Positions 7,259 through 22,364 of a stretch of 32,000 nucleotides of DNA are shown here, in pieces. The stretch is from Trichodesmium erythraeum IMS101 (GTDB lineage: Bacteria; Cyanobacteriota; Cyanobacteriia; Cyanobacteriales; Microcoleaceae): NCBI RefSeq assembly GCF_000014265.1, contig NC_008312.1, forward strand, positions 1,290,001-1,322,000, written 5' to 3'. The notes under the pieces are model-generated. The model saw nothing but the letters and a program-made list of their open reading frames with translations, searched no databases and had not been told where the DNA came from. The position numbers and the translations under genes were made by a program. Every line of letters begins with the position of its first letter. Position 1 is the first letter of the stretch.

Positions 7259-8650
7259 TTATTGAAACTCTCGTTTAATTGATTTTGCCCATAATAAAAA
7301 CGGTATTACACCACCTCCTAATAATGCTGCTAATGTGAATAAAAAAATGATGATTCTAGTCAGAGGAGGTAGGGAGCGCGACACCCAAGGAAATACATAA
7401 GGCTCTAATTCAGAATCTACTAAATTATTAGGCAACTTAAAACTAACTTGTACATTATGTAATGAGCCACGGTCAGCATTTATTGGTTGAATATAATTAA
7501 TTTGATACTCATCAAATAAAGCCTCTAAAAATTCGGTCAAACTGGTAGAAATATTTTCAGCATTTCCCGAAAATTCAGCAATACCATTAGTTACTCCTGC
7601 GATTTGTTGTAGTCGCCTTTGATCAACAAATTCTTCAGCAGCAACTTCTCTTAATTTCTCTGATCCATTACTTTTTTTTCTGCCTCTTTTACTAATATCT
7701 CTAATAGTTGGAGATTGCTTTAAATCATATTTTTGTTGCAACTGTTGGGGAGTCAAACCATAACCTAAAGTATGCACAGTAATATTAGGATAACTTTTTA
7801 ACATAAACATCATTTTTTCAAAATCTTGTGCTTCTAATTCTGGTTCATTTTCTCTATTTCCATAAATACTATGATAGCCATCAGAAAGTAAAATTATTGA
7901 ACGTCTTGGCTGAGGTAAATTAGAATTTATTGGTAAGTTAAAACGAGTATCTTCAGGATTACCAAAAAATTGTACTGCCTGACGCAAAGGTTCATAAATA
8001 TCTGTAGCTGCACAAAGATTATCTAGTTTACTCTCTAATTTATTGAGAGTCTGTTCGACCTTTTTTTTACCAGCTAAAACAAAATTATCTAGTTGTTTTT
8101 TCCTGACTTGATTTCCCGGACAATTTTTACCTCCTTTGCCAAAGGGCACGATGGAAATTCTGGTATTTTCTCCCTTTTTAGCTAAATCTTGATTGAACTT
8201 TCTAATAGCAGCGATCGCTCCTTCTAATTTAGTTTTTTCTCCACTACTATCCAATTGTTTCATACTGCCACTAAAATCTAATAAAACAATTACCCAAGCC
8301 GGAGGTAATTCTTTAGGTTGAGGAATTTTCAAATTAATATCTGCCTGGTTTAAAGTTTGACATTCTCCAGTTTTAGGGTCAGATTTTGGCGGACAAACTG
8401 TTAAGTTAAACTCATTTTTTTGCATACCTCTTATTGGTTTATTTTTTTGGTCGTAGACTTTAACCCGGAGGGTGACTTTTCCTTCATTTCTATCAGGAAT
8501 AGCCTCAATTATTTCCAGATTTTTGACTTTAGCAAAAACAGGATTAATGTAGCAAATTACTATTAATAAAGATAGACTAAGATCCCGGGCAAAAAAATAG
8601 ATTTTAGTAGACAAATATGAATAATTTTTTAGAATTAACATTTTCAGCAT
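7259..8650 (-). CDS. von Willebrand factor type A (vWA) domain protein with N-terminal signal-like segment and C-terminal TM anchor
   Basis: 463-aa ORF. MIDAS motif D-F-S-G-S (nt 8264-8278), with later CAATD and ILLSDG motifs. Signal-like LSLSLLIVICYINPVFA and a C-terminal hydrophobic LTRIIIFLFTLAALLGGGVIPFLLWA. The true start is uncertain because the first ~25 codons overlap a gene relic. Confidence 0.85.
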   Translation of the reverse strand: MLKMLILKNYSYLSTKIYFFARDLSLSLLIVICYINPVFAKVKNLEIIEAIPDRNEGKVTLRVKVYDQKNKPIRGMQKNEFNLTVCPPKSDPKTGECQTLNQADINLKIPQPKELPPAWVIVLLDFSGSMKQLDSSGEKTKLEGAIAAIRKFNQDLAKKGENTRISIVPFGKGGKNCPGNQVRKKQLDNFVLAGKKKVEQTLNKLESKLDNLCAATDIYEPLRQAVQFFGNPEDTRFNLPINSNLPQPRRSIILLSDGYHSIYGNRENEPELEAQDFEKMMFMLKSYPNITVHTLGYGLTPQQLQQKYDLKQSPTIRDISKRGRKKSNGSEKLREVAAEEFVDQRRLQQIAGVTNGIAEFSGNAENISTSLTEFLEALFDEYQINYIQPINADRGSLHNVQVSFKLPNNLVDSELEPYVFPWVSRSLPPLTRIIIFLFTLAALLGGGVIPFLLWAKSIKREFQ

Positions 8651-12578: not shown

Positions 12579-12712
12579 ATTAATTTTAAAGTTACAAACT
12601 TAGGCAGGTTTTATAGAATAATTTTCCTGATATTACCTTTGAAATTATTATAGTAGTTTCTTTAAAAGATTACTTAAAAGGTTAGTAGTCTAGTAATCAG
12701 CAAAATACATAG

Positions 12713-12848
12713 AAAGCTATTGAAGTAACAGAAAAATTTTCAGCAAATTGTCTGAATATTATTCCTAATATTGGCTGTATATAAAGCTATTGAAGTAACA
12801 GAAAAATTTTCAGCAAATTGTCTGAATATTATTCCTAATATTGGCTGT
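12713..12848 (+). repeat. Perfect 66-bp direct repeat, two copies with 70-bp period
   Basis: AAAGCTATTGAAGTAACAGAAAAATTTTCAGCAAATTGTCTGAATATTATTCCTAATATTGGCTGT occurs at 12713-12778 and again at 12783-12848, separated by ATAT. Confidence 0.95.
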
Positions 12849-13102: not shown

Positions 13103-15283
13103 TTATCCACAACGTTGAGGTCGTGTTTGTAAATTAATTTCTAACAAGTCTGCAAGATCGCACTTTAATTTATCTGCCGTTTTCTTATTCGGTTCTATGT
13201 AGCCAAAACCATCACTAAAAAATTTTTTTTGATAGGAATAAATTGCTCCTATCCACTGCTTTTTCACCACTAAATATTTATCTTCTTCCCCGATAACATC
13301 ATCTTTATAGCCTGCGATATACTGAATTTTTACATCATTTTCTAGAATCTCATGAATAGCTTTAATAATTTCTAAACGCGCATCTTCTGTTGTCAATAAC
13401 GTCGAATTTTGATTTAATAATTCTACCTCTAACTCCCGAACAATTTTTTGAATTTCTCTCCTCGTAGTGGAAAACTTTTCTAGTGCTTTTTCCATTTTTT
13501 CCGTCGAAAGTTCACTCACAGTATTTTTTTCTACATCAGTTAATATTTCTTCTGAGGAAAGGGGATATTCTTGAGTTTTCCTTTCAACAATATTTCCACT
13601 ATTAAGCTTACCTACCTGATATCCTAAAATAAAAAACAAACCATGAGAAAACATAATCAGAAAAGTTGCTGCTACTGACCGTCTATATTTTCTAATTAAT
13701 ATAGTAATATGGTCAGAAAAATCTAATTCCCTTTCAACAGTTAACCCAAAAATAATTGTTTGATAAAAATATTTGAGTTTCGGAAACGCGGCGGTAAAAA
13801 TTTCTTTTGGTACTTTTCCATTGCTAATTTGGTGAAAATAAGCTGCTAACTCATAATCAGATAGTTGATAAAATAAATCGGCAAAAGGTTGATAATAATT
13901 GGAGGTTTTCTGAGAGGTTTTCTGATAGGAGGAGGAAGTTTTATCCCAACGATTTTTTAGAAAATCAATTAACTTTTTCCAAGTAGCATTTCCATACACT
14001 AATTCATCTTTTTGTTGACCAGGATTTTTGTGTAATAGACTATTTTCTAAAGATTTTAAATCCTGGCGAACTTGTTGTTTAATTATGCTCGAATGTGCTG
14101 ACCATAAACTGTCTTGATTTTTTAAAAGACAACAGTAGTCAGTAACAGATATTTTTTTTCCTAAGATTTGAGATAAGACATGATTTGCTCCTAAGATGAT
14201 TAATGGTTCTAATAATTTTTTATAATTTCTCAGTTGTAATTGTAATTGTCTGGAAATTTTTTGCTTTTCATTTTCTTTCTTTCTATGCCTACTAATATTT
14301 AACCAATTTAGATATTCTGGTAAACTCTCAGGAATAAAAATTGCCCTTAAAGTTAATAACCTAATCATCTGAGCATTAGCATTTCCTTGTTTTATCCCAT
14401 TAGTCGCTCCCAGGTTATCAAATAAATTGTTTAAATATTCTGATGTAATTTGACCATTCTGTAATTTTAAAACTAAATTTTCTATCCATTCTTGCTTGAT
14501 TTTAGAGCCACTAATTAATCCTTTAATTGCTGTTTCTATAGCAGCTTCATCTATATATCTTGAGGTATTACTAGAAGAATTTTTAATCATTTTTGTCTGT
14601 ATTTTTGTCAGGTTTGCTGCTACTTCTGCATTGGCTGGATGAATAATTATAAATTGTTCTGGTCGCTCAACAGCTTCAAGATTATAAATCCATGATATGG
14701 GGAGATCATTGGCTTTTAATTCAGCCATTTTATTCAGAATTTGTAAGTCAGATAATTTAGTAGAAATTATGACTGGGAAAGTTGTAGTGTTCAGCCAATT
14801 TTGCCAATTTTTAGGTAAATTTATTTCTGGTTTTTTTGTGACTTGATGTTTGTTTGGTTTTCCAATCTGTTTAGTTTCAGATGGATTAAATATTGGATTA
14901 ATTCCCTGTTGCTGCTGAATATTTATCCAATCTAATATTTGCCAAATATTATCTTTTCCAGTACATAAAAAATAACGATAAAAAGAAGTAGAACGACTAT
15001 ATTCATCTTGCCCAGATGTCACTACCGCAACTACTGAATAATCTGGTTCTTTATCGTTCATACTTAACACAACTCGCCCAACAAAAGTAGGTTCTTGACT
15101 ATGGCGATCTTTGCCGACTTCAAATCCTTTATTGGCAATTGCTCTTGCTAGAGAATAGGGAATTTTTGGCAAGGTTAAATTCATATATTCTCCTACTTTA
15201 AATCCCCGGGAAATCCATTGACCGTTGGGTAATATTTCGGGAATTATGCCTGTGCTAAACTCGTGAATTTCAATATTTTTCAT
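13103..15283 (-). CDS. 726-aa partner of the paired NTPases: N-terminal alpha/beta region, long helical middle, one TM segment, C-terminal coiled-coil region (possible GAP1-like GTPase-associated protein)
   Basis: Long uninterrupted ORF in the same orientation as the two NTPase genes and downstream of them. Hydrophobic VAATFLIMFSHGLFFILGY lies at about nt 13612-13677. Heptad-like charged stretches follow (EKALEKFSTTRREIQKIVRELEVELL). The GAP1 assignment is an inference and was not verified. Confidence 0.8.
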   Translation of the reverse strand: MKNIEIHEFSTGIIPEILPNGQWISRGFKVGEYMNLTLPKIPYSLARAIANKGFEVGKDRHSQEPTFVGRVVLSMNDKEPDYSVVAVVTSGQDEYSRSTSFYRYFLCTGKDNIWQILDWINIQQQQGINPIFNPSETKQIGKPNKHQVTKKPEINLPKNWQNWLNTTTFPVIISTKLSDLQILNKMAELKANDLPISWIYNLEAVERPEQFIIIHPANAEVAANLTKIQTKMIKNSSSNTSRYIDEAAIETAIKGLISGSKIKQEWIENLVLKLQNGQITSEYLNNLFDNLGATNGIKQGNANAQMIRLLTLRAIFIPESLPEYLNWLNISRHRKKENEKQKISRQLQLQLRNYKKLLEPLIILGANHVLSQILGKKISVTDYCCLLKNQDSLWSAHSSIIKQQVRQDLKSLENSLLHKNPGQQKDELVYGNATWKKLIDFLKNRWDKTSSSYQKTSQKTSNYYQPFADLFYQLSDYELAAYFHQISNGKVPKEIFTAAFPKLKYFYQTIIFGLTVERELDFSDHITILIRKYRRSVAATFLIMFSHGLFFILGYQVGKLNSGNIVERKTQEYPLSSEEILTDVEKNTVSELSTEKMEKALEKFSTTRREIQKIVRELEVELLNQNSTLLTTEDARLEIIKAIHEILENDVKIQYIAGYKDDVIGEEDKYLVVKKQWIGAIYSYQKKFFSDGFGYIEPNKKTADKLKCDLADLLEINLQTRPQRCG

Positions 15284-15630: not shown

Positions 15631-16536
15631 TTAATCTTGCTCTAAATGTAAATTACGCTTACCTGTACAAATCCAATATATAGGAGAAACTAAACCAAAA
15701 GGTCGCCATTTTTTTGAGTCTCCTAATACAGATGCTACCCCGCTACGATCGCGATAAATTTCTTCAGAATTTGGTTGAAAATATTTATTTTGATTTCTTG
15801 TTGCGCCAAAAGCAGAAGTTGTAAAATATTCCACATTTCCCATTCCTAAATCTTGCCAAGATTCTAATCTTTTAAAAATAGTAGGAAATCTGGCTTTTAA
15901 CAAAAATTTTGGTTTGTGTCTATTTCCCCATAAATCTGCTAATTCACACTTAGTTAATACTAGAGCAATTCGCCGTTTTTGACTGAAAATATTTCCCCCT
16001 GCTAATGCTACTAAAAGTTGATCAACTCCTCTGGCATATTCTAAGTCTTTACGATGAGTTGTACCATCAATCATTAACATAATTCCTGTGGCGGGAAAAC
16101 AATCATTTAAGTAGTCTCGGAGTAGCTGACTATTTGTTTCTTGAAGTACATCGCTGAAAAATTCTCCAGAATAATCTTTGCAACTAATATCTAAGTTTAA
16201 AACGGTGTTTGAAAATTTGGAATTATCTGTTTTTTTCAGAACAATTCTTAAACTATAATCCTTAATTTCTAGCACGTCACTAGCTAAACGAGTTGGTTCA
16301 ATTTGTAATCCTTTTTCTATCAAGTCTTGTGCCTGTCTAATTAAAGATTCTCCGTCTTTATTTGCTGGAGTAACTAACTCGACTGGACTCGATATATCGG
16401 CATTTGGCCACCTAGCTAAAGCAGCCATATAAGTCGTTTTTCCCGCGGCGCGATCGCCTATTACCCGTAAAACTCCAGAATGATTTTCGACTTTTAATTC
16501 TTGATTATTTCTGGGTTTAAATATAGATTTAAACAT
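15631..16536 (-). CDS. Divergent Ras-like (TRAFAC-type) P-loop NTPase, paralogue B
   Basis: 301-aa ORF. Walker A GDRAAGKT (nt 16435-16458), IEPT, D-Y-S-G-E, T-K-C-E where NKxD is expected, S-A-F-G, and a C-terminal W-R-P-F-G-x3-P-I-Y-W motif. Confidence 0.85.
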   Translation of the reverse strand: MFKSIFKPRNNQELKVENHSGVLRVIGDRAAGKTTYMAALARWPNADISSPVELVTPANKDGESLIRQAQDLIEKGLQIEPTRLASDVLEIKDYSLRIVLKKTDNSKFSNTVLNLDISCKDYSGEFFSDVLQETNSQLLRDYLNDCFPATGIMLMIDGTTHRKDLEYARGVDQLLVALAGGNIFSQKRRIALVLTKCELADLWGNRHKPKFLLKARFPTIFKRLESWQDLGMGNVEYFTTSAFGATRNQNKYFQPNSEEIYRDRSGVASVLGDSKKWRPFGLVSPIYWICTGKRNLHLEQD

Positions 16537-16594: not shown

Positions 16595-17410
16595 TTAACT
16601 TTTCATATACTGACCTTTACTTAACCAGTATAAAGGAGGAATAATTCCATAAGGTTTCCATTTCAAAGGTTCCCGTAAAATTGAGTGAGAACTGCCTAAT
16701 TCATCTGTACGATTTGGACGGGGGTCATTTCGATGTAAAACACCAAAGGTAGATATAGCATAAAACTGTAAATTTTGCTGAGGAATACGCTTTTTTAAAA
16801 TATTTGTTGTTCTGGGTAAATGAACTTTAAATATATCTAATTCTGGGTCAAGACGACCAGGCCATATTTCTCCTCTTTCACATTTACTCATTGCTATGGC
16901 TAGACGTAAATCTTGAGTACGATCTTTTTCATCTATTAAGTTAATAAATTTTTCTATTACGTTACTATAAAATATGTCGTTTCCTGGTTCCCATTTATGG
17001 AGTAAAATTAGACAGCCAAGGTTATCTTTTATCATACATTCATCGAAAAATTCTTGATGTAAAGTGTTAGACATTCCACTTTGTAATTCATTAAAAATTT
17101 CCCCTGGGTAATCTCGGACTACTAGGTTGATTTCTTCTGGTTTTCTTTGCCACCAATGTTTGATTTCTATATGAAAAGAATACAAGGGTAAATCGTAAAA
17201 ACTTTGAATTTTAATTCCGTCGATAATGGTTGGTTCTAAAGAGGCTCCATTTAAAATAATATTCTCCGCTTTAGTAGCTAAATTTTTAGCATCATTAGTA
17301 ATAGCTGTAATTTGAAAGTTAGGATTAGTTTTTTCCGGCCAATAAGCTAATCCTGCTAGATAAGTTGTTTTGCCTGCACCAGTAGGTCCAATAATACAAA
17401 TATTCCCCAT
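16595..17410 (-). CDS. Divergent Ras-like (TRAFAC-type) P-loop NTPase, paralogue A
   Basis: 271-aa ORF. Walker A GPTGAGKT (nt 17366-17389), LEPT, D-Y-P-G-E, S-K-C-E where NKxD is expected, S-T-F-G, and a C-terminal W-K-P-Y-G-x3-P-L-Y-W motif. Lies 58 bp upstream of paralogue B. Confidence 0.85.
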   Translation of the reverse strand: MGNICIIGPTGAGKTTYLAGLAYWPEKTNPNFQITAITNDAKNLATKAENIILNGASLEPTIIDGIKIQSFYDLPLYSFHIEIKHWWQRKPEEINLVVRDYPGEIFNELQSGMSNTLHQEFFDECMIKDNLGCLILLHKWEPGNDIFYSNVIEKFINLIDEKDRTQDLRLAIAMSKCERGEIWPGRLDPELDIFKVHLPRTTNILKKRIPQQNLQFYAISTFGVLHRNDPRPNRTDELGSSHSILREPLKWKPYGIIPPLYWLSKGQYMKS

Positions 17411-18365: not shown

Positions 18366-21300
18366 TTGATTAAGTCAATGCTGTTTAACCCCTTTCTCCG
18401 TAAATTGCGTTTTTTGCTGCTGTTGTTGTTGGTGCTGTTGGTGGTAAATTTGGGGCATGTTCGAGCTTCTGAGGAGTCACCGCCGGCAGACTGGCAACTC
18501 CAGGGAATATTGGCGGCGTTGGATGATCCTGATCCTGATGTTTGGGTTAAAGCTTTGAAGAAAATGTCTGAGTATGACCTTAAACCTGTTGAAATTTCAT
18601 CAGAGCGGGTTGAACAAATTGGAAAATTGCTGAGTCATGAAAATTGGCATGTCCGTTCTGCAGCAGCAAGGGCAGTGGGTGAGATGGGGGCGGAGGCTAA
18701 AGTTTTGATTCCCCAGTTGCTGCAGTTGTTCAGGGATGAAAATTCGGGTGTCCGTTCTGCAGCAGCAAGGGCAGTGGGTGAGATGGGGGCGGAGGCTAAA
18801 GTTTTGATTCCCCAGTTGCTGCAGTTGTTCAGGGATGAAAATTCGTATGTCCGTGAAGCAGCAGTAAGGGCAGTGGGTGAGATGGGGGCGGAGGCTAAAG
18901 TTTTGATTCCCCAGTTGCTGCAGTTGTTCAGGGATGAAAGTTCGGGTGTCCGTTCTGCAGCAGCAAGGGCAGTGGGTGAGATGGGGGCGGAGGCTAAAGT
19001 TTTGATTCCCCAGTTGCTGCAGTTGTTCAGGGATGAAGATTCGTATGTCCGTTCTGCAGCAGCAAGGGCAGTGGGTGAGATGGGGGCGGAGGCTAAAGTT
19101 TTGATTCCCCAGTTGCTGCAGTTGTTCAGGGATGAAAGTTCGGGTGTCCGTTCTGCAGCAGCAAGGGCAGTGGGTGAGATGGGGGCGGAGGCTAAAGTTT
19201 TGATTCCCCAGTTGCTGCAGTTGTTCAGGGATGAAAGTTCGTATGTCCGTTCTGCAGCAGCAAGGGCAGTGGGTGAGATGGGGGCGGAGGCTAAAGTTTT
19301 GATTCCCCAGTTGCTGCAGTTGTTCAGGGATGAAAATTCGTATGTCCGTGAAGCAGCAGTAAGGGCAGTGGGTGAGATGGGGGCGGAGGCTAAAGATTTG
19401 ATTCCCCAGTTGCTGCAGTTGTTCAGGGATGAAAATTGGTATGTCCGTTCTGCAGCAGTAAGGGCAGTGGGTGAGATGGGGGCGGAGGCTAAAGATTTGA
19501 TTCCCCAGTTGCAGCAGTTGTTCAGGGATGAAAATCCGTATGTCCGTGAAGCAGCAGCAAGGGCAGTGGGTGAGATGGGGGCGGAGGCTAAAGTTTTGAT
19601 TCCCCAGTTGCAGCAGTTGTTCAGGGATGAAAATTCGGGTGTCCGTTCTGCAGCAGCAAGGGCAGTGGGTGAGATGGGGGCGGAGGCTAAAGTTTTGATT
19701 CCCCAGTTGCAGCAGTTGTTCAGGGATGAAAATTCGGGTGTCCGTTCTGCAGCAGCAAGGGCAGTGGGTGAGATGGGGGCGGAGGCTAAAGTTTTGATTC
19801 CCCAGTTGCTGCAGTTGTTCAGGGATGAAAGTTCGTATGTCCGTGAAGCAGCAGCAACGGCAGTGGGTGAGATGGGGGCGGAGGCTAAAGATTTGATTCC
19901 CCAGTTGCAGCAGTTGTTGATGGATGAAAATTCGGATGTTCGTGAAAAAGCAGCACGGGCAGTGGGTAAGATAGGAAAATTAAATACTCAGCAGATTTTA
20001 CCAATTTTAAACGCAGCTCATAGAAACCGAGATAAAGAAGCAACACTTCGTTTTCTCGCCTACTTTGTCAGTGGTGGAGAATATGATGCCCTTACCCTAA
20101 CTAAATGGTTAGGTTCACCAGAACAATATCCTTATCAAATAGATAAATTTAAGAATGAACGCCCCATTAGCCACGAAGAAGGCAAAAAAGTCTTAGAGCT
20201 TTTTGCAGAAATTTGGAAACCAAGTCAGTCCTTAGAATACTTACCTTTTGAATTGGAACGACAAATTAACATAGTAGTCGAAAAAGTAGATTGGCAACCA
20301 GAAGATCTGCCCCTACTCAAGAAACACTACAACAACCTCAAAGACGAAGACATCAACGCCAAAATAGTCGCCTTACAAGGAATACAATGGTTCTCCTACC
20401 TCTGGAAATTTCTACTCCTTCACGCCTTGACTTGGCTCATCCTCCTCTGCCTCTATGCCAAATCTCCCGAAATTCAAACCCTATTCTGGCATCCCCAGAT
20501 TCGCAAAATTGCCGGACTCGGTTACATCGGTTTATTACTCACCTGGATACCATCCCTCCGCCGCCTACTCTTTTCCCCCTTCCAACCCATTCTCATCGCA
20601 GACGCTGACCTCGACAGTTTCAACCCCCAAGATTACTTTTCCGACTCCAACGTTTGTCTCCAAAATACCCACAACCTACAACCCATCAAAACCACCATTG
20701 CCAAAATCCAATCTCCCATTGTCCTCCAAGGAGAATCAGGTCTCGGCAAATCAATGTTCCTGCGGCACTGGGCGAAAACCCGCAAAAATCTAGTAGTTTA
20801 CTTACCCGCCAGCAAATGTGCCCAAGGAGCGATCGCCGCCATCCAAAGCAAAATACCCATATCTCAAACAGACCCCAAATTCCTCAAAAGGCTGATTTAC
20901 AATAACGCCCTCGAAATTTGTATTGACGGTCTCAACGAAGTCACCCCCGACACCCGCACAAAAATTAGTTATTTTGTCGAGAGTCACTTCCGGGGTCATA
21001 TACTCCTAGCAACACAACCCCTATATTGGATCCCACCCTCAACAACCAAAACCTATGTTCTCCAACCATTGAAGCGTGAGCAAATTCGACAGTTTCTCCA
21101 GACTCGTCAATTTAACCCATCGGCAGAACCTTCAATTTCCCGGTCTGAATATGAAGAAGCTTGCGAAGAATACCTCGGAAAAACCTTCAATTCACAGAAG
21201 CAGTCAGAAGAAGAGCAGAAAACAGTACGTCGGTTACTATCAAACCCCATGGACTTAACTATTGTAGCCCAAATTCTTGCCCAGGGGAAAACCCCGGACT

Positions 21301-22364
21301 TGCTCAACCTGCAACAACAGCAGTATAAAGTCATGGCAGCAGAATACAAAGAGGTTAATTTTGATTCTTTTCCACTAACAGAGTTTGCCGAAACAACATA
21401 TCAGATGCGTCTCAACGATGAAATCAATATTCCGTCGGAGTGGAAAAAAGAACTCCAGACCATGGAAAAATACAAAATGGTTTTGCGCCGTCAAAAGTAT
21501 GTGGAAAATGACGTCGGTTCTCAATGGTATTTCCGCCATGATAAAATTCAAGAATATTTTATCGTCCAGACATTTATCGGTGAGGAAAATCAAAAATTAG
21601 AGGAACATATTGACGATCCCAGGTTTCGAGGAGTTTATCTATTATTAGCAACCCTCCTACCCTACCTAGAAGCCTGGTCACTGCGAGAGAAATTATTACA
21701 AAATGCAGCCGAAACCAAAGACCATGTTGTTAGCGACCAATTTATTCAACGCTTAAATTCTCGGTCGGAATTATCCAAAAATGGTGAGAATGTATACTTA
21801 AAGGAGTTAATAGAAGTTATGAAATTGCTTATTGCTGAGAAAAATAATAATATAAATAAGGAGTTGACAGAATTGACGAAATTGTTTATTACTGAGAAAA
21901 ATAATAATATAAATATTGAAGTTAACCCTAATATTGAAGCAAACCCTAATACGAGGAATAATTCAATGACAGATAATTCTGAATCAAAATATAACTTTAG
22001 CCAAGCCAGAGTTGGTAACGTAGTCGAAACAAATAATGGCAGTATGGGTAATGTAGTCGAGAAAGCCGAAAGTGGCAGTCAAGTTGTAGGAACTCAAAAT
22101 AACTATGGTTCCCAAGAAAAGCAAACCCTCGCCGAAGCCGCCGCCGAAATTCAAAAATTATTGAAACAATTAGAATTAAATAACCCCGCCGCGACAGACG
22201 CAGAAAAAGAAGCATTTGTCACCGCCTCCATTCCCCCAAACAACCGCCAACGTTTTGTCGGAGCATTGCAAGCATTAGGCAAAGAAGCCCTCAAAGAACT
22301 ATTAGATAACCCTTATATTAATGTGGGAGTAGCCACTGTTGAAGGGTGGCAAAACCCTAAATAA
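18366..22364 (+). CDS. NLR-like protein: signal/anchor segment, HEAT (PBS-lyase-type) repeat array, two hydrophobic segments, NACHT-type STAND NTPase, low-complexity region and conserved helical tail
   Basis: 1332-aa ORF with a TTG start at 18366 (alternative ATG at 18378). Has 13-14 33-aa HEAT-like repeats and hydrophobic segments at 20388-20459 and 20508-20558. Walker A GESGLGKS (20730-20753), Walker B LEICIDGLNEV, ILLATQP and the NACHT-typical NPMDLTIVAQIL are present. The tail reads QTLAEAAAEIQKLLKQLE...NPYINVGVATVEGWQNPK. Confidence 0.85.
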   Translation: MIKSMLFNPFLRKLRFLLLLLLVLLVVNLGHVRASEESPPADWQLQGILAALDDPDPDVWVKALKKMSEYDLKPVEISSERVEQIGKLLSHENWHVRSAAARAVGEMGAEAKVLIPQLLQLFRDENSGVRSAAARAVGEMGAEAKVLIPQLLQLFRDENSYVREAAVRAVGEMGAEAKVLIPQLLQLFRDESSGVRSAAARAVGEMGAEAKVLIPQLLQLFRDEDSYVRSAAARAVGEMGAEAKVLIPQLLQLFRDESSGVRSAAARAVGEMGAEAKVLIPQLLQLFRDESSYVRSAAARAVGEMGAEAKVLIPQLLQLFRDENSYVREAAVRAVGEMGAEAKDLIPQLLQLFRDENWYVRSAAVRAVGEMGAEAKDLIPQLQQLFRDENPYVREAAARAVGEMGAEAKVLIPQLQQLFRDENSGVRSAAARAVGEMGAEAKVLIPQLQQLFRDENSGVRSAAARAVGEMGAEAKVLIPQLLQLFRDESSYVREAAATAVGEMGAEAKDLIPQLQQLLMDENSDVREKAARAVGKIGKLNTQQILPILNAAHRNRDKEATLRFLAYFVSGGEYDALTLTKWLGSPEQYPYQIDKFKNERPISHEEGKKVLELFAEIWKPSQSLEYLPFELERQINIVVEKVDWQPEDLPLLKKHYNNLKDEDINAKIVALQGIQWFSYLWKFLLLHALTWLILLCLYAKSPEIQTLFWHPQIRKIAGLGYIGLLLTWIPSLRRLLFSPFQPILIADADLDSFNPQDYFSDSNVCLQNTHNLQPIKTTIAKIQSPIVLQGESGLGKSMFLRHWAKTRKNLVVYLPASKCAQGAIAAIQSKIPISQTDPKFLKRLIYNNALEICIDGLNEVTPDTRTKISYFVESHFRGHILLATQPLYWIPPSTTKTYVLQPLKREQIRQFLQTRQFNPSAEPSISRSEYEEACEEYLGKTFNSQKQSEEEQKTVRRLLSNPMDLTIVAQILAQGKTPDLLNLQQQQYKVMAAEYKEVNFDSFPLTEFAETTYQMRLNDEINIPSEWKKELQTMEKYKMVLRRQKYVENDVGSQWYFRHDKIQEYFIVQTFIGEENQKLEEHIDDPRFRGVYLLLATLLPYLEAWSLREKLLQNAAETKDHVVSDQFIQRLNSRSELSKNGENVYLKELIEVMKLLIAEKNNNINKELTELTKLFITEKNNNINIEVNPNIEANPNTRNNSMTDNSESKYNFSQARVGNVVETNNGSMGNVVEKAESGSQVVGTQNNYGSQEKQTLAEAAAEIQKLLKQLELNNPAATDAEKEAFVTASIPPNNRQRFVGALQALGKEALKELLDNPYINVGVATVEGWQNPK
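18639..20024 (+). repeat. In-frame tandem array: 13 near-identical 99-bp units (18639-19925) plus one degenerate unit
   Basis: The unit GAAAAT(TCG/TGG/CCG)...CGT(TCT/GAA)GCAGCAG(C/T)AAGGGCAGTGGGTGAGATGGGGGCGGAGGCTAAAG(T/A)TTTGATTCCCCAGTTGC(T/A)GCAGTTGTTCAGGGAT repeats with a 99-bp period. It encodes E(N/S/D)(S/W/P)(G/Y/H)VR(S/E)AA(A/V)RAVGEMGAEAK(V/D)LIPQL(L/Q)QLFRD. Confidence 0.95.

Follow-up and report, generated by a model that had tools for sequence, protein, structure and literature searches.

How a tandem array can keep its units almost identical base for base and still differ among them at a few codons, and what such an array might do for the cell, is the question raised by one gene of Trichodesmium erythraeum IMS101. 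The gene (18378–22364, stop codon included, taken from the ORF list) lies in a window of 32,000 nucleotides, by which we mean the whole stretch of DNA that was analysed (contig NC_008312.1, positions 1,290,001 to 1,322,000); all coordinates below are positions in this window, and all features are on the + strand. The gene encodes a HEAT/TM/NACHT-like protein of 1328 aa, matched exactly over its whole length by ABG50240.1/WP_011610632.1 in the protein collection. We think it fairly probable that the array is the sensor of a membrane-spanning NLR-like receptor, homogenised by recombination and diversified on one face of helix A.

Tandem Repeats Finder (TRF) reports one array (18637–19972; period 99, 13.5 copies, 94% matches, no indels, score 2301), and slicing at 18639+99n yields thirteen full 99-bp (33-aa) units (18639–19925) in frame with the ORF, exactly as a sequence-only reading of this DNA had proposed. 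A 14th unit (19926–20024) is homologous over its first 17 codons only, and no second copy of the 99-bp unit was found elsewhere in the window. Units differ pairwise by a mean of 5.2 of 99 nt, with mean pairwise identities of 0.947 for nucleotides and 0.89 for amino acids over 13 x 33 aa; 11 of the 13 are distinct, unit 2 being identical to unit 12 and unit 4 to unit 6. The variation occupies 15 nucleotide columns in 10 codons. Codons 2 (AAT/AGT/GAT), 3 (TCG/TGG/CCG), 4 (GGT/TAT/CAT) and 7 (TCT/GAA) are hypervariable in IMS101, and codons 10 (GCA/GTA), 22 (GTT/GAT) and 28 (CTG/CAG) vary as well, each polymorphism being precisely the one that the reading had listed; the additional changes that it saw in unit 13 prove to be those at codons 11 (AGG/ACG), 31 (TTC/TTG) and 32 (AGG/ATG).

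Its observations on the nature of these differences are equally sound. None of the 15 variable columns is synonymous, the "18 synonymous differences" of a pairwise Nei-Gojobori sum arising only from pathway averaging through the three-base TCT/GAA change. The variants are mixed combinatorially among units: in a four-gamete test, all four allele combinations occur at 14/21 pairs of variable codons, and the three-base variant GAA at codon 7 is found in four different contexts. Counted as minimal substitution steps, 0/16 changes are synonymous, as compared with 24.6% synonymous sites in the unit (binomial p = 0.011), and the array also differs from the non-repeat part of the same gene, where two strains show 24 synonymous and 36 nonsynonymous differences (Fisher p = 0.001).

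The array matches HEAT families in Pfam (HEAT, E = 1.4e-100; HEAT_2, 1.8e-86; HEAT_PBS, 1.5e-25), and the closest PDB sequences are alphaRep chains (E = 2e-54 to 1e-13), with MTH187 at 2e-7. An AlphaFold model of the array part (pLDDT 88.6, pTM 0.79; pLDDT about 90–96 in the HEAT units) gives two-helix units, with a helical stretch at unit positions 3–30 and 5-residue loops between units, and Foldseek aligns the model with HEAT solenoids (alphaRep TMt 0.76, rmsd 4.4 Å). As modelled, the array is an alphaRep/PBS-type HEAT solenoid. Model and alignment place before it a non-repeated N-terminal cap (aa 33–87; 18474–18638) with predicted helices H38-47, H53-63 and H75-84, and with W39, G43, A47, L48 and D50 conserved among homologues; its C-cap is the degenerate terminal half unit ENSDVREKAARAVGKIG (19926–19976), matched by HMM to unit positions 1–17 only and kept in all alleles compared.

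Along helix A, variability has a moment of 0.58 (permutation p = 0.0014), and the variable positions share one helical face. Codons 3, 4, 7, 8, 11 and 15 are equivalent to positions 18, 19, 22, 23, 26 and 30 of alphaRep, the randomised positions, which lie on its concave binding face (PMC3754942); surface exposure of the variable residues is read here from helical periodicity together with alphaRep homology. Across the family, within-array entropy peaks at unit positions 2, 3, 4, 7, 11, 15, 22 and 28. The recognition surface first suggested, codons 2–4 with 7 and 10, stands in part: codons 2, 3, 4 and 7 lie on the helix-A face, codon 10 is weakly variable and sits at its edge (93 degrees off centre on a helical wheel), and codons 8, 11 and 15 join the set. 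Codons 22 and 28 do not share this face: their variation is on helix B, which counts against the proposed recognition surface. We infer that the family-wide recognition set is codons 2, 3, 4, 7, 8, 11 and 15, one stripe on helix A, and that ligands may be recognised by this face of the HEAT array.

Other Trichodesmium alleles carry the same nucleotide backbone with other residues at the variable codons, chiefly 2, 3, 4, 7, 8, 11 and 15. The number of full units is 2 in three independent metagenome contigs (L008, L009 and L012; assembled from short reads, so that collapse is possible), at least 4 in L011, and 13 both in IMS101 and in L010, an environmental contig from a JGI sample, all alleles besides IMS101 being metagenome or MAG contigs of unverified assembly. 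Up to 7–8 different residues occur at single codons of L010 on an unchanged backbone, and different alleles have unit types in common, at different array positions. The allele of a T. erythraeum MAG (GBRTRLIN201) shows no difference over 904 aa apart from those at codons 7 and 11 of unit 13. A search with the whole N-terminal half of the protein retrieved one further close allele (P0177), and a scan of GTDB genomes found a 97% relative, with a contig break at the array, as well as Okeania orthologues, which are more diverged (77–86% nucleotide identity, pS 0.17–0.31). Scanning the JGI metagenome contig collection, to which the L010 sample does not belong, for the invariant unit core gave no matches.

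The backbone of the units is nearly free of silent change. Within arrays its pS is 0.000 in IMS101 and 0.025 in L010, and between IMS101 and L010 units it is 0.013, compared with 0.050 for the single-copy C-terminal part of these two alleles. At the hypervariable codons 2, 3, 4, 7, 8, 11 and 15, pN/pS is 4–19 (0.21/0.05 in IMS101 and 0.40/0.02 in L010), as estimated by a counting method from units that are not independent lineages and reflect few independent events. In a set of 35 Trichodesmium units, 30/47 nonsynonymous steps fall in these seven codons; over all codons the same units give 8 synonymous vs 47 nonsynonymous steps, which is not significant against a uniform expectation (p = 0.10), and significance is reached with the IMS101 array on its own, in the contrast with the remainder of the gene, and through the concentration in seven codons. 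The 105-bp arrays found in three other, related genera behave alike, with 89–93% identity and whole-unit pN/pS of 0.54–1.59. Hypervariable codons on a backbone almost identical at silent sites, with variants shuffled among units, bear out the earlier proposal that concerted evolution and diversification of the fungal NLR kind operate on this array.

A rival account of the IMS101 array does without selection for diversity. Under recent neutral amplification with relaxed constraint, the lineage of IMS101 would very recently have gained about 11 duplicates of one unit, the differences would be old founder variants from two or three units or tolerated changes at those exposed positions that are least constrained, and the array would serve as a structural spacer or scaffold and not as a recognition surface. 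Units 1–12 of IMS101 share the ending LFRD with unit 1 of the short alleles, and unit 13 shares the ending LLMD with their unit 2. Moreover, GAA at codon 7, GAT at 22, CAG at 28 and TGG at 3 are IMS101 variants already present in other alleles, and codons 8 and 15, which are hypervariable elsewhere, do not vary in IMS101. In the reading that we prefer, too, GAA, GAT and CAG are old alleles that were re-assorted, not new mutations, and the IMS101 allele, without a single silent difference, is an unusually young, homogenised form of the array whose units carry a limited stock of old variants in shuffled combinations. Neutrality can further draw on the non-significant all-codon test and on the generic variability of the same positions in natural PBS-type HEAT repeats (PMC3754942). 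However, relaxed constraint predicts pN/pS near 1, not the values seen at seven codons of a nearly silent backbone, and it would have to account for the residue diversity of L010 on its unchanged backbone, for the independent recurrence of the pattern in the 105-bp arrays of other genera, and for the restriction of variation to one helical face. On balance, we regard neutral amplification as an unlikely account of the array.

The homologues that share this architecture number more than 700 and belong to filamentous cyanobacteria, organisms in which the periplasm is shared along the filament. The order of parts from the N to the C terminus is signal peptide, HEAT array, helical juxtamembrane domain, one TM helix, divergent NACHT NTPase and adaptor-like tail. 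The predicted Sec-type signal peptide, MLFNPFLRKLRF-LLLLLLVLLVV-NLGHVRA with SEE opening the mature part (18378–18467; from hydropathy and homologues), has a hydropathy peak of 2.42 over aa 1–32 and an n-h-c layout with V-x-A before the mature part that is kept across genera; an N-terminal hydrophobic segment is present in 61/74 full-length homologues, and pLDDT in the AlphaFold model is low at aa 24–31. The peptide would be cleaved and the HEAT domain exported. Downstream of the array, model and homologues define a conserved, all-helical juxtamembrane domain (aa 534–671; 19977–20390; predicted helices H537-654), with many residues invariant across 54 homologues, which is followed by the single strong transmembrane helix FSYLWKFLLLHALTWLILLCLYA (20391–20459; hydropathy 1.84), placed by the model inside a 37-residue helix (aa 657–693). 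A second, weaker hydrophobic stretch comes after it (20508–20558; aa 711–727). GC3 is raised over the whole gene, and GC-biased conversion, considered as a cause of the GC-rich array, for this reason finds no support as an array-specific effect.

With this layout, the N-terminal HEAT array is probably extracytoplasmic: a signal peptide and one strong TM helix leave the ATP-dependent NACHT module in the cytoplasm, and a third crossing by the weak segment, which the models break into short helices, would put it outside. The same evolutionary regime might nevertheless act on a cytoplasmic array, the hydrophobic stretches merely anchoring a conventional intracellular NLR-like sensor to the membrane. 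The distribution of charge leaves room for this arrangement, since K+R in the 15-residue flanks of the TM helix is 2.06 before and 1.60 after in 109 homologues, a positive-inside count that does not favour the orientation with HEAT outside, and so does the weaker hydrophobic stretch itself; characterised bacterial NACHT and Avs proteins, moreover, sense cytoplasmic phage proteins (bioRxiv 10.1101/2022.07.19.500537; PMC13581612). The signal-peptide layout conserved across genera speaks against it, as does the count of crossings, and a subset of the bacterial NACHT proteins with TM regions has already been proposed to sense periplasmic signals (bioRxiv 10.1101/2022.07.19.500537). We give the cytoplasmic arrangement only a small chance.

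The NACHT-type STAND NTPase module (20649–21776) is recognised by Walker motifs, a weak Pfam match and fold search. Its Walker A motif GESGLGKS (20730–20753; aa 785–792) and Walker B motif LEICIDGLNE (20910–20939; aa 845–854) agree with the patterns GxxGxGK[ST] and hhhhDGxDE, respectively, and are invariant in 54 homologues. Pfam NACHT (PF05729) covers the region over profile positions 2–158 of 167, with E = 0.0044 and 17.3 bits, below the gathering cut-off of 26.7. Using a model of the C-terminal 779 aa, the best 24 PDB matches in Foldseek are all NACHT NLRs (NLRC4, NOD2, NLRP3), with E = 1e-8 to 1e-5 over 420–510 aligned columns where the model has pLDDT 80–90, and TMt to the isolated NLRP3 NACHT is 0.51–0.56. 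The modelled fold follows the NBD-HD1-WHD-HD2 arrangement of solved NLRs; on this model, the protein is NLR-like, with a divergent NACHT. It departs from the canonical NLR order of N-terminal effector, central NOD and C-terminal repeats, in that the repeats are N-terminal and set apart from the NOD by a TM helix, with no more than a short tail behind the NOD.

Two short in-frame tandem repeats (57 bp x2 and 18 bp x2.2, by TRF; 21801–21951) form part of the predicted cytoplasmic linker after the NACHT module, and their copy number differs between the alleles whose tails were compared. The putative C-terminal output region (21987–22361) consists of a low-complexity G/N/Q/V-rich segment (21987–22109; pLDDT <50) and a conserved 84-aa helical domain (22110–22361). 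The domain is absent from Nostocales homologues and recurs in standalone cyanobacterial proteins of 110–140 aa, in each of which a similar G/N/Q-rich segment precedes it. These standalone proteins have a conserved DUF6232 neighbour, and because no NLR or effector partner was found in their genomic context, an adaptor role of the tail stays speculative. The gene itself adjoins a DO-GTPase conflict system and MACPF/vWA genes in the window (PMC7159879). Scans of the C-terminal part matched no PADLOC defence model and assigned no NCBIfam family, and a literature search found no paper mentioning the protein.

It is very improbable that the unit number, order or sequence is an artefact of mis-assembled near-identical repeats. 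Short-read assemblies do struggle with such arrays: the MAG_R02 contig ends inside the terminal unit, and among the MAG proteins several are fragments whose first residues lie in the array. The present source, however, is the finished chromosome of T. erythraeum IMS101, which makes an artefact unlikely; the array measures exactly 13 x 99 bp and keeps the frame without indels; and its 11 distinct units leave a longest exact internal repeat of 172 bp, which is within reach of Sanger reads. In addition, an independent T. erythraeum MAG agrees with the last 2.8 units at all but two codons, and the independent environmental contig also has 13 units. Targeted mutagenesis by a DGR (diversity-generating retroelement) or phase-variable slippage is scarcely credible as the source of the differences, for all that DGRs are reported to act on NLR-like proteins of multicellular cyanobacteria, where they diversify putative antigen sensors (PMC10907252). 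No reverse transcriptase was found in the 19 ORFs of the window that were scanned, the substitutions are not specific to adenine, 13 tandem units vary instead of one variable region, and slippage cannot switch the gene on or off because the unit length is a multiple of three.

In the reading that we prefer, a membrane-spanning NLR-like receptor with a homogenised and diversified sensor, the HEAT solenoid of 13.5 repeats behind a signal peptide would be the sensor domain. The DNA comparisons show that its units are kept near-identical by recent amplification together with ongoing unequal recombination or gene conversion between them; this process also re-assorts variants among units, and it would account for the different unit counts of the lineages (2, at least 4, or 13). 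Variation is retained or selected at about seven codons of the concave, alphaRep-type binding face. This face may bind a ligand that changes rapidly and is met beyond the cytoplasm, either in the periplasm or possibly in the thylakoid lumen; candidate ligands are phage parts or non-self filament components. Binding could then be passed through the TM helix, probably by clustering, leading to NACHT oligomerisation and output via the C-terminal tail. Canonical NLRs have C-terminal repeats, which fold back on NACHT; repeats on the other side of a membrane cannot do this, and the signalling step is thus a conjecture. A more specific picture, which we advance tentatively and hold to be possible rather than probable, is that of a bacterial transmembrane NLR with a TLR/NLR hybrid logic, in which a strain-specific hypervariable HEAT solenoid in the periplasm, coupled via one TM helix to a cytoplasmic NACHT, senses extracellular or periplasmic non-self, for instance the entry machinery of phages or, in mixed colonies, filaments of foreign Trichodesmium. 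Repeat amplification and shuffling would renew its repertoire, and the G/N/Q-rich segment and 84-aa domain would recruit standalone partners with the same module.

Several known systems share parts of this design. The designed alphaRep binders and the natural PBS-lyase-type HEAT repeats that served as their model (PDB 3LTJ, 6FSQ, 4ZV6; PMC3754942) have the fold and the consensus DExxVRxxAAxALGxxG... in common with the array, with units of 31 residues in alphaRep and 33 in Trichodesmium, and the Trichodesmium protein adds the receptor context and the variable codons 22 and 28 on helix B. The binding face of this repeat type is already understood from alphaRep protein engineering, and alleles with a common backbone and different surfaces provide ready material for binding screens.

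Fungal NLRs include the Podospora HET-E/HET-D/HET-R NWD family and ANK, TPR and HEAT NLRs such as Pa_6_7270, a sesB-like/NACHT/HEAT protein (Dyrka et al. 2014, PMC4986451). Shared with them are a NACHT NTPase joined to tandem superstructure-forming repeats with units >85% identical, a few positively selected positions on the binding face, and unit shuffling leading to concerted evolution. The Trichodesmium array falls among the highly internally conserved (HIC) repeats, which Dyrka et al. (2014) define by at least 100 aa of units that are >85% identical. Fungal NLRs also show repeat-number polymorphism between strains, a trait that the Trichodesmium gene may have in common with them, to judge from unit counts in metagenome contigs of unverified assembly, and in the fungal nwd genes repeats are exchanged between paralogues. 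The likeness to fungal NLRs drawn in the sequence-only reading needs correcting in the architecture: the Trichodesmium protein is bacterial, its repeats are N-terminal to NACHT with a TM helix between and are probably exported, and it has no N-terminal effector domain, the output being presumably C-terminal.

Diversification of NLR repeats by concerted evolution and positive selection is established in fungi, and in bacteria it has only been suggested, for WD/TPR repeats. Bacterial NLR-like proteins of filamentous bacteria have highly conserved WD40/TPR repeats that are 80–90% identical, for which fungal-like diversification was proposed (Dyrka et al. 2020, bioRxiv 10.1101/2020.01.06.895854). 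That proposal concerned C-terminal WD/TPR repeats and had no codon-by-codon test, whereas the Trichodesmium locus, from an ecologically important marine nitrogen fixer, is a concrete bacterial case in HEAT repeats, with per-codon and between-strain evidence and another topology. The bNACHT antiphage proteins (Kibby et al., bioRxiv 10.1101/2022.07.19.500537) share the NACHT and the enrichment in multicellular cyanobacteria, and HEAT repeats and TM regions are found among their sensor types; they are ordered N-effector, NACHT, C-sensor, in contrast to the Trichodesmium family, which has the sensor first, a NACHT below the Pfam cut-off and no PADLOC match.

If the predicted topology is true, NLR-type switches can be wired to extracytoplasmic sensors, blurring the line between surface and intracellular innate receptors, and the protein would be a candidate, open to experiment, for how colony-forming cyanobacteria sense phages or recognise kin. 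Toll-like receptors likewise combine an extracytoplasmic tandem-repeat solenoid, a single TM helix and a cytoplasmic signalling module. The analogy is one of topology only, without homology: their solenoid is built of LRR and not HEAT repeats, and their signalling module is a TIR domain and not a NACHT NTPase.

In Tandem Repeats Finder, the repeats form one array at 18637-19972 (period 99, 13.5 copies, 94% matches, no indels), and slicing the sequence at 18639+99n gives the 13 complete units that the sequence-only reading had described, all in frame with the ORF at 18378-22364 (+); the likeness of a 14th unit to the others is confined to its first 17 codons. The codon table of the 13 units reproduces every polymorphism listed by that reading (N/S/D at codon 2, S/W/P at codon 3, G/Y/H at codon 4, S/E at codon 7 as TCT/GAA, A/V at codon 10, V/D at codon 22, and L/Q at codon 28), and the extra changes noticed in unit 13 prove to be three private codons (11, R/T; 31, F/L; 32, R/M). 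The reported absence of synonymous differences also holds: the array has 15 variable nucleotide columns and 0 synonymous changes. Treating the units as samples, which are not independent in this or any other unit-level statistic, we find that 0 of 16 minimal steps being synonymous has p = 0.011 under a binomial expectation based on 24.3 synonymous sites per unit, and p = 0.001 against the 24:36 synonymous:nonsynonymous ratio of the gene's nonrepeat part between strains. All four allele combinations are present in 14 of the 21 pairs of variable codons, and the three-base variant GAA at codon 7 is found in four different contexts, so the combinatorial mixing of variants proposed from the sequence is real and is not explained by recurrent point mutation. 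With an amino acid identity of 0.89, this is the most homogenized array we have seen.

The exact 1328-aa product is ABG50240.1/WP_011610632.1, annotated as "HEAT domain containing protein" from T. erythraeum IMS101, and lies on the 7,750,108-bp contig of a finished genome, with neighboring proteins that are also from IMS101. An independent T. erythraeum MAG (GBRTRLIN201; allele P0286) recovers the last 2.8 units and the next 780 residues, matching IMS101 over 904 residues save for E490S and T494R. Short-read MAGs do break at the array (the contig of a 97% relative stops within the terminal unit), but an assembly artifact is an unlikely origin for the IMS101 array because the genome is finished, the longest exact repeat within the array is 172 bp, and GBRTRLIN201 agrees. 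In unit 13, the two GBRTRLIN201 replacements affect codons 7 and 11 (19845-19847 and 19857-19859), both toward the array consensus; they look like a single short gene-conversion tract, or possibly a chimeric MAG contig end.

Repeat number appears to vary between Trichodesmium strains, as had been suggested, with two full units plus a terminal half unit in each of three alleles (L008, L009, and L012), at least 4 in L011, and 13 in L010, although every allele except IMS101 comes from a metagenome or MAG assembly and the 2-unit forms are possibly collapsed. L008 and L009 are syntenic with IMS101, with a DO-GTPase gene upstream in both. The L012 orthologue (709-2592 of its contig) is called as a 356-aa product ending shortly after the TM helix, with a separate ORF next, and may be a frameshifted or pseudogenized allele in that population. 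The IMS101 nucleotide backbone is common to all recovered Trichodesmium alleles. Comparison of 35 units requires 47 nonsynonymous and 8 synonymous minimal steps, 30 of the 47 at codons 2, 3, 4, 7, 8, 11, and 15, where one position can take as many as seven residues, encoded by eight codons; tested over all codons of these units, the synonymous/nonsynonymous balance is not significant (p = 0.10). At the hypervariable codons, pN and pS are 0.21 and 0.05 within IMS101 and 0.40 and 0.02 within L010. The corresponding backbone values are 0.026 and 0.000 within IMS101, 0.038 and 0.025 within L010, and 0.037 and 0.013 between units of the two, compared with 0.020 and 0.050 for the single-copy C-terminal part (IMS101 versus L010). 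Silent sites are thus more uniform in the backbone than in the rest of the gene, and a small number of codons evolve rapidly.

Pfam identifies the array as HEAT repeats (E = 1.4e-100), and its nearest solved relatives are the designed alphaRep binders (E = 2e-54) and the natural template MTH187. For residues 1-711, AlphaFold gives a confident model (pLDDT 88.6, pTM 0.79): a hydrophobic N-terminal helix and a disordered linker lead into a regular solenoid (unit positions 3 to 30 helical, units joined by five-residue loops), after which come an all-helical domain (aa 534-654) and a 37-residue helix holding the one strong hydrophobic segment (aa 672-694). Foldseek matches the model to HEAT solenoids, with a TMt of 0.76 for alphaRep. 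By alignment, codons 3, 4, 7, 8, 11, and 15 correspond to the positions randomized in the alphaRep library (18, 19, 22, 23, 26, and 30), which lie on the concave face where binders contact their targets (PMC3754942). Variability in helix A is directional on a helical wheel (resultant 0.58, permutation p = 0.0014); helix B gives no directional signal on the wheel. The wheel and the alphaRep match together place the main variable set on one, probably exposed, face of helix A. The prediction that the variable positions share a face is therefore borne out for the main set. Outside it, the weakly variable codon 10 sits at that face's edge, helix B carries codons 22 and 28, and codon 2 is in the interunit loop.

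Okeania orthologues have 11-13 units with 77-86% nucleotide identity that differ at many synonymous sites (pS 0.17-0.31). In three other genera the arrays have a 105-bp period, with 13.6, 9.6, and 6.6 copies and 89-93% matches; whole-unit pN/pS is 0.54, 1.11, and 1.59, and replacements cluster at positions equivalent to the hypervariable ones. Across 24 family members, mean within-array entropy peaks at unit positions 2, 3, 4, 7, 11, 15, 22, and 28. One distant member, with the 13.6-copy array, carries 4.4 tandem copies of a 36-bp sequence (96% matches) at 545-703 of its contig L017, some 270 bp before its start codon at 972.

Downstream of the TM helix, Walker A (GESGLGKS) and Walker B (LEICIDGLNE) motifs are present, and the C-terminal 779 residues are modeled with pLDDT 80-90 across the NTPase. 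The Pfam NACHT match is weak (17.3 bits, under the profile cut-off), but the top 24 PDB matches of the model are all NLRC4, NOD2, and NLRP3 (TMt up to 0.56), and on this modeled fold we assign the module, predicted to be cytoplasmic, to a divergent NACHT. More than 700 homologues, all named ones from filamentous cyanobacteria (Okeania, Moorena, Nostoc, Calothrix, Tolypothrix, Rivularia, and others), share the order signal-peptide-like N terminus, HEAT array, juxtamembrane domain, TM helix, and NACHT. Nostocales members end directly after NACHT; in the Trichodesmium/Okeania/Moorena branch a tail follows it, made up of short repeats of variable copy number, a segment rich in G/N/Q/V, and a conserved helical domain of 84 aa. 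In IMS101, this second set of in-frame repeats (21801-21951) consists of 57 bp x2 (KEL..EKNNNIN) and 18 bp x2.2 (IEVNPN/IEANPN), followed at 21987-22361 by pseudorepeats (GNVVE..GNVVE..SQVVGTQNNYG) and the 84-aa domain. The 57-bp repeat is present once in allele P0001 and twice in IMS101 and P0288, and NPN units are more numerous in Okeania. The same two-part module, the G/N/Q-rich stretch always preceding the 84-aa domain, makes up entire 110-140-aa standalone proteins of many filamentous cyanobacteria, and may be an adaptor or prion-like signaling module. In four contigs, the standalone gene is immediately downstream of a DUF6232 gene.

The gene combines a near-identical tandem backbone, reassorted variants, and a replacement excess on one helical face with a downstream NACHT fold, and close lineages differ in unit number in MAG and metagenome assemblies. 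We infer that the array is homogenized and resized by unequal recombination and gene conversion, with diversity on the binding face kept or favored by selection. The solenoid would be exported by the predicted signal peptide, which is conserved across genera and has a classic n-h-c layout with V-x-A, and joined through one TM helix to the cytoplasmic NACHT. Because the positive-inside count flanking the helix gave no support to an exported-HEAT orientation, this topology rests on the signal peptide and the ATPase's need for cytoplasm. Ligand binding outside would then drive NACHT assembly inside, with output via the C-terminal tail.

Divergent from the gene lie two paralogous Double-GTPase genes (16595-17410 and 15631-16536, both -) and, after them, the gene for a 726-aa protein that matches no Pfam family (13103-15283, -). 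Together they resemble the DO-GTPase/GAP1 conflict system described by Kaur et al. 2020, with GAP1 as the candidate identity of the 726-aa protein; in L008 and L009, both the DO-GTPase gene and the large upstream ORF keep this position. In the stretch that separates the 726-aa gene from the upstream ORFs, a 70-bp direct repeat (2.0 copies, 98% identical) occupies 12709-12848. Together with MACPF/perforin-domain (4564-5925, +; E = 4e-15) and vWA-domain (7259-8650, -) genes a few kilobases upstream, the DO-GTPases suggest that the window is a defense or conflict island, the kind of setting in which conflict systems of multicellular bacteria have been described (PMC7159879). This is consistent with an immunity or nonself role, short of proof. 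GC3 is 0.46, 0.55, and 0.41 in the N-terminal part, array, and C-terminal part, against 0.18-0.32 in twelve neighboring ORFs, and so is raised beyond the repeats; GC skew is +0.38 over the array but changes sign, to between -0.3 and -0.5, over the NACHT part. Such foreign composition may stem from horizontal acquisition from a higher-GC cyanobacterium or from gene-specific codon bias.

A literature search found no paper on the HEAT-NACHT protein or its family. HEAT repeats and TM regions are among the sensor types catalogued for bacterial NACHT proteins, some of which are proposed periplasmic sensors (bioRxiv 10.1101/2022.07.19.500537); relative to this literature, the predicted inverted (repeats before NACHT), membrane-spanning architecture appears to be new. 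In fungal NLRs with highly internally conserved WD, ANK, TPR, and HEAT repeats, repeat number is polymorphic, the units evolve in concert, and a few surface positions are under positive selection (PMC4986451), and a similar regime has been suggested for bacterial NLR WD/TPR repeats that are 80-90% identical (Dyrka et al., bioRxiv 10.1101/2020.01.06.895854). Unlike those bacterial cases, the Trichodesmium array is built of HEAT units, a new repeat type of this kind in a bacterium, and it adds codon-level and between-strain evidence for a diversifying bacterial array.
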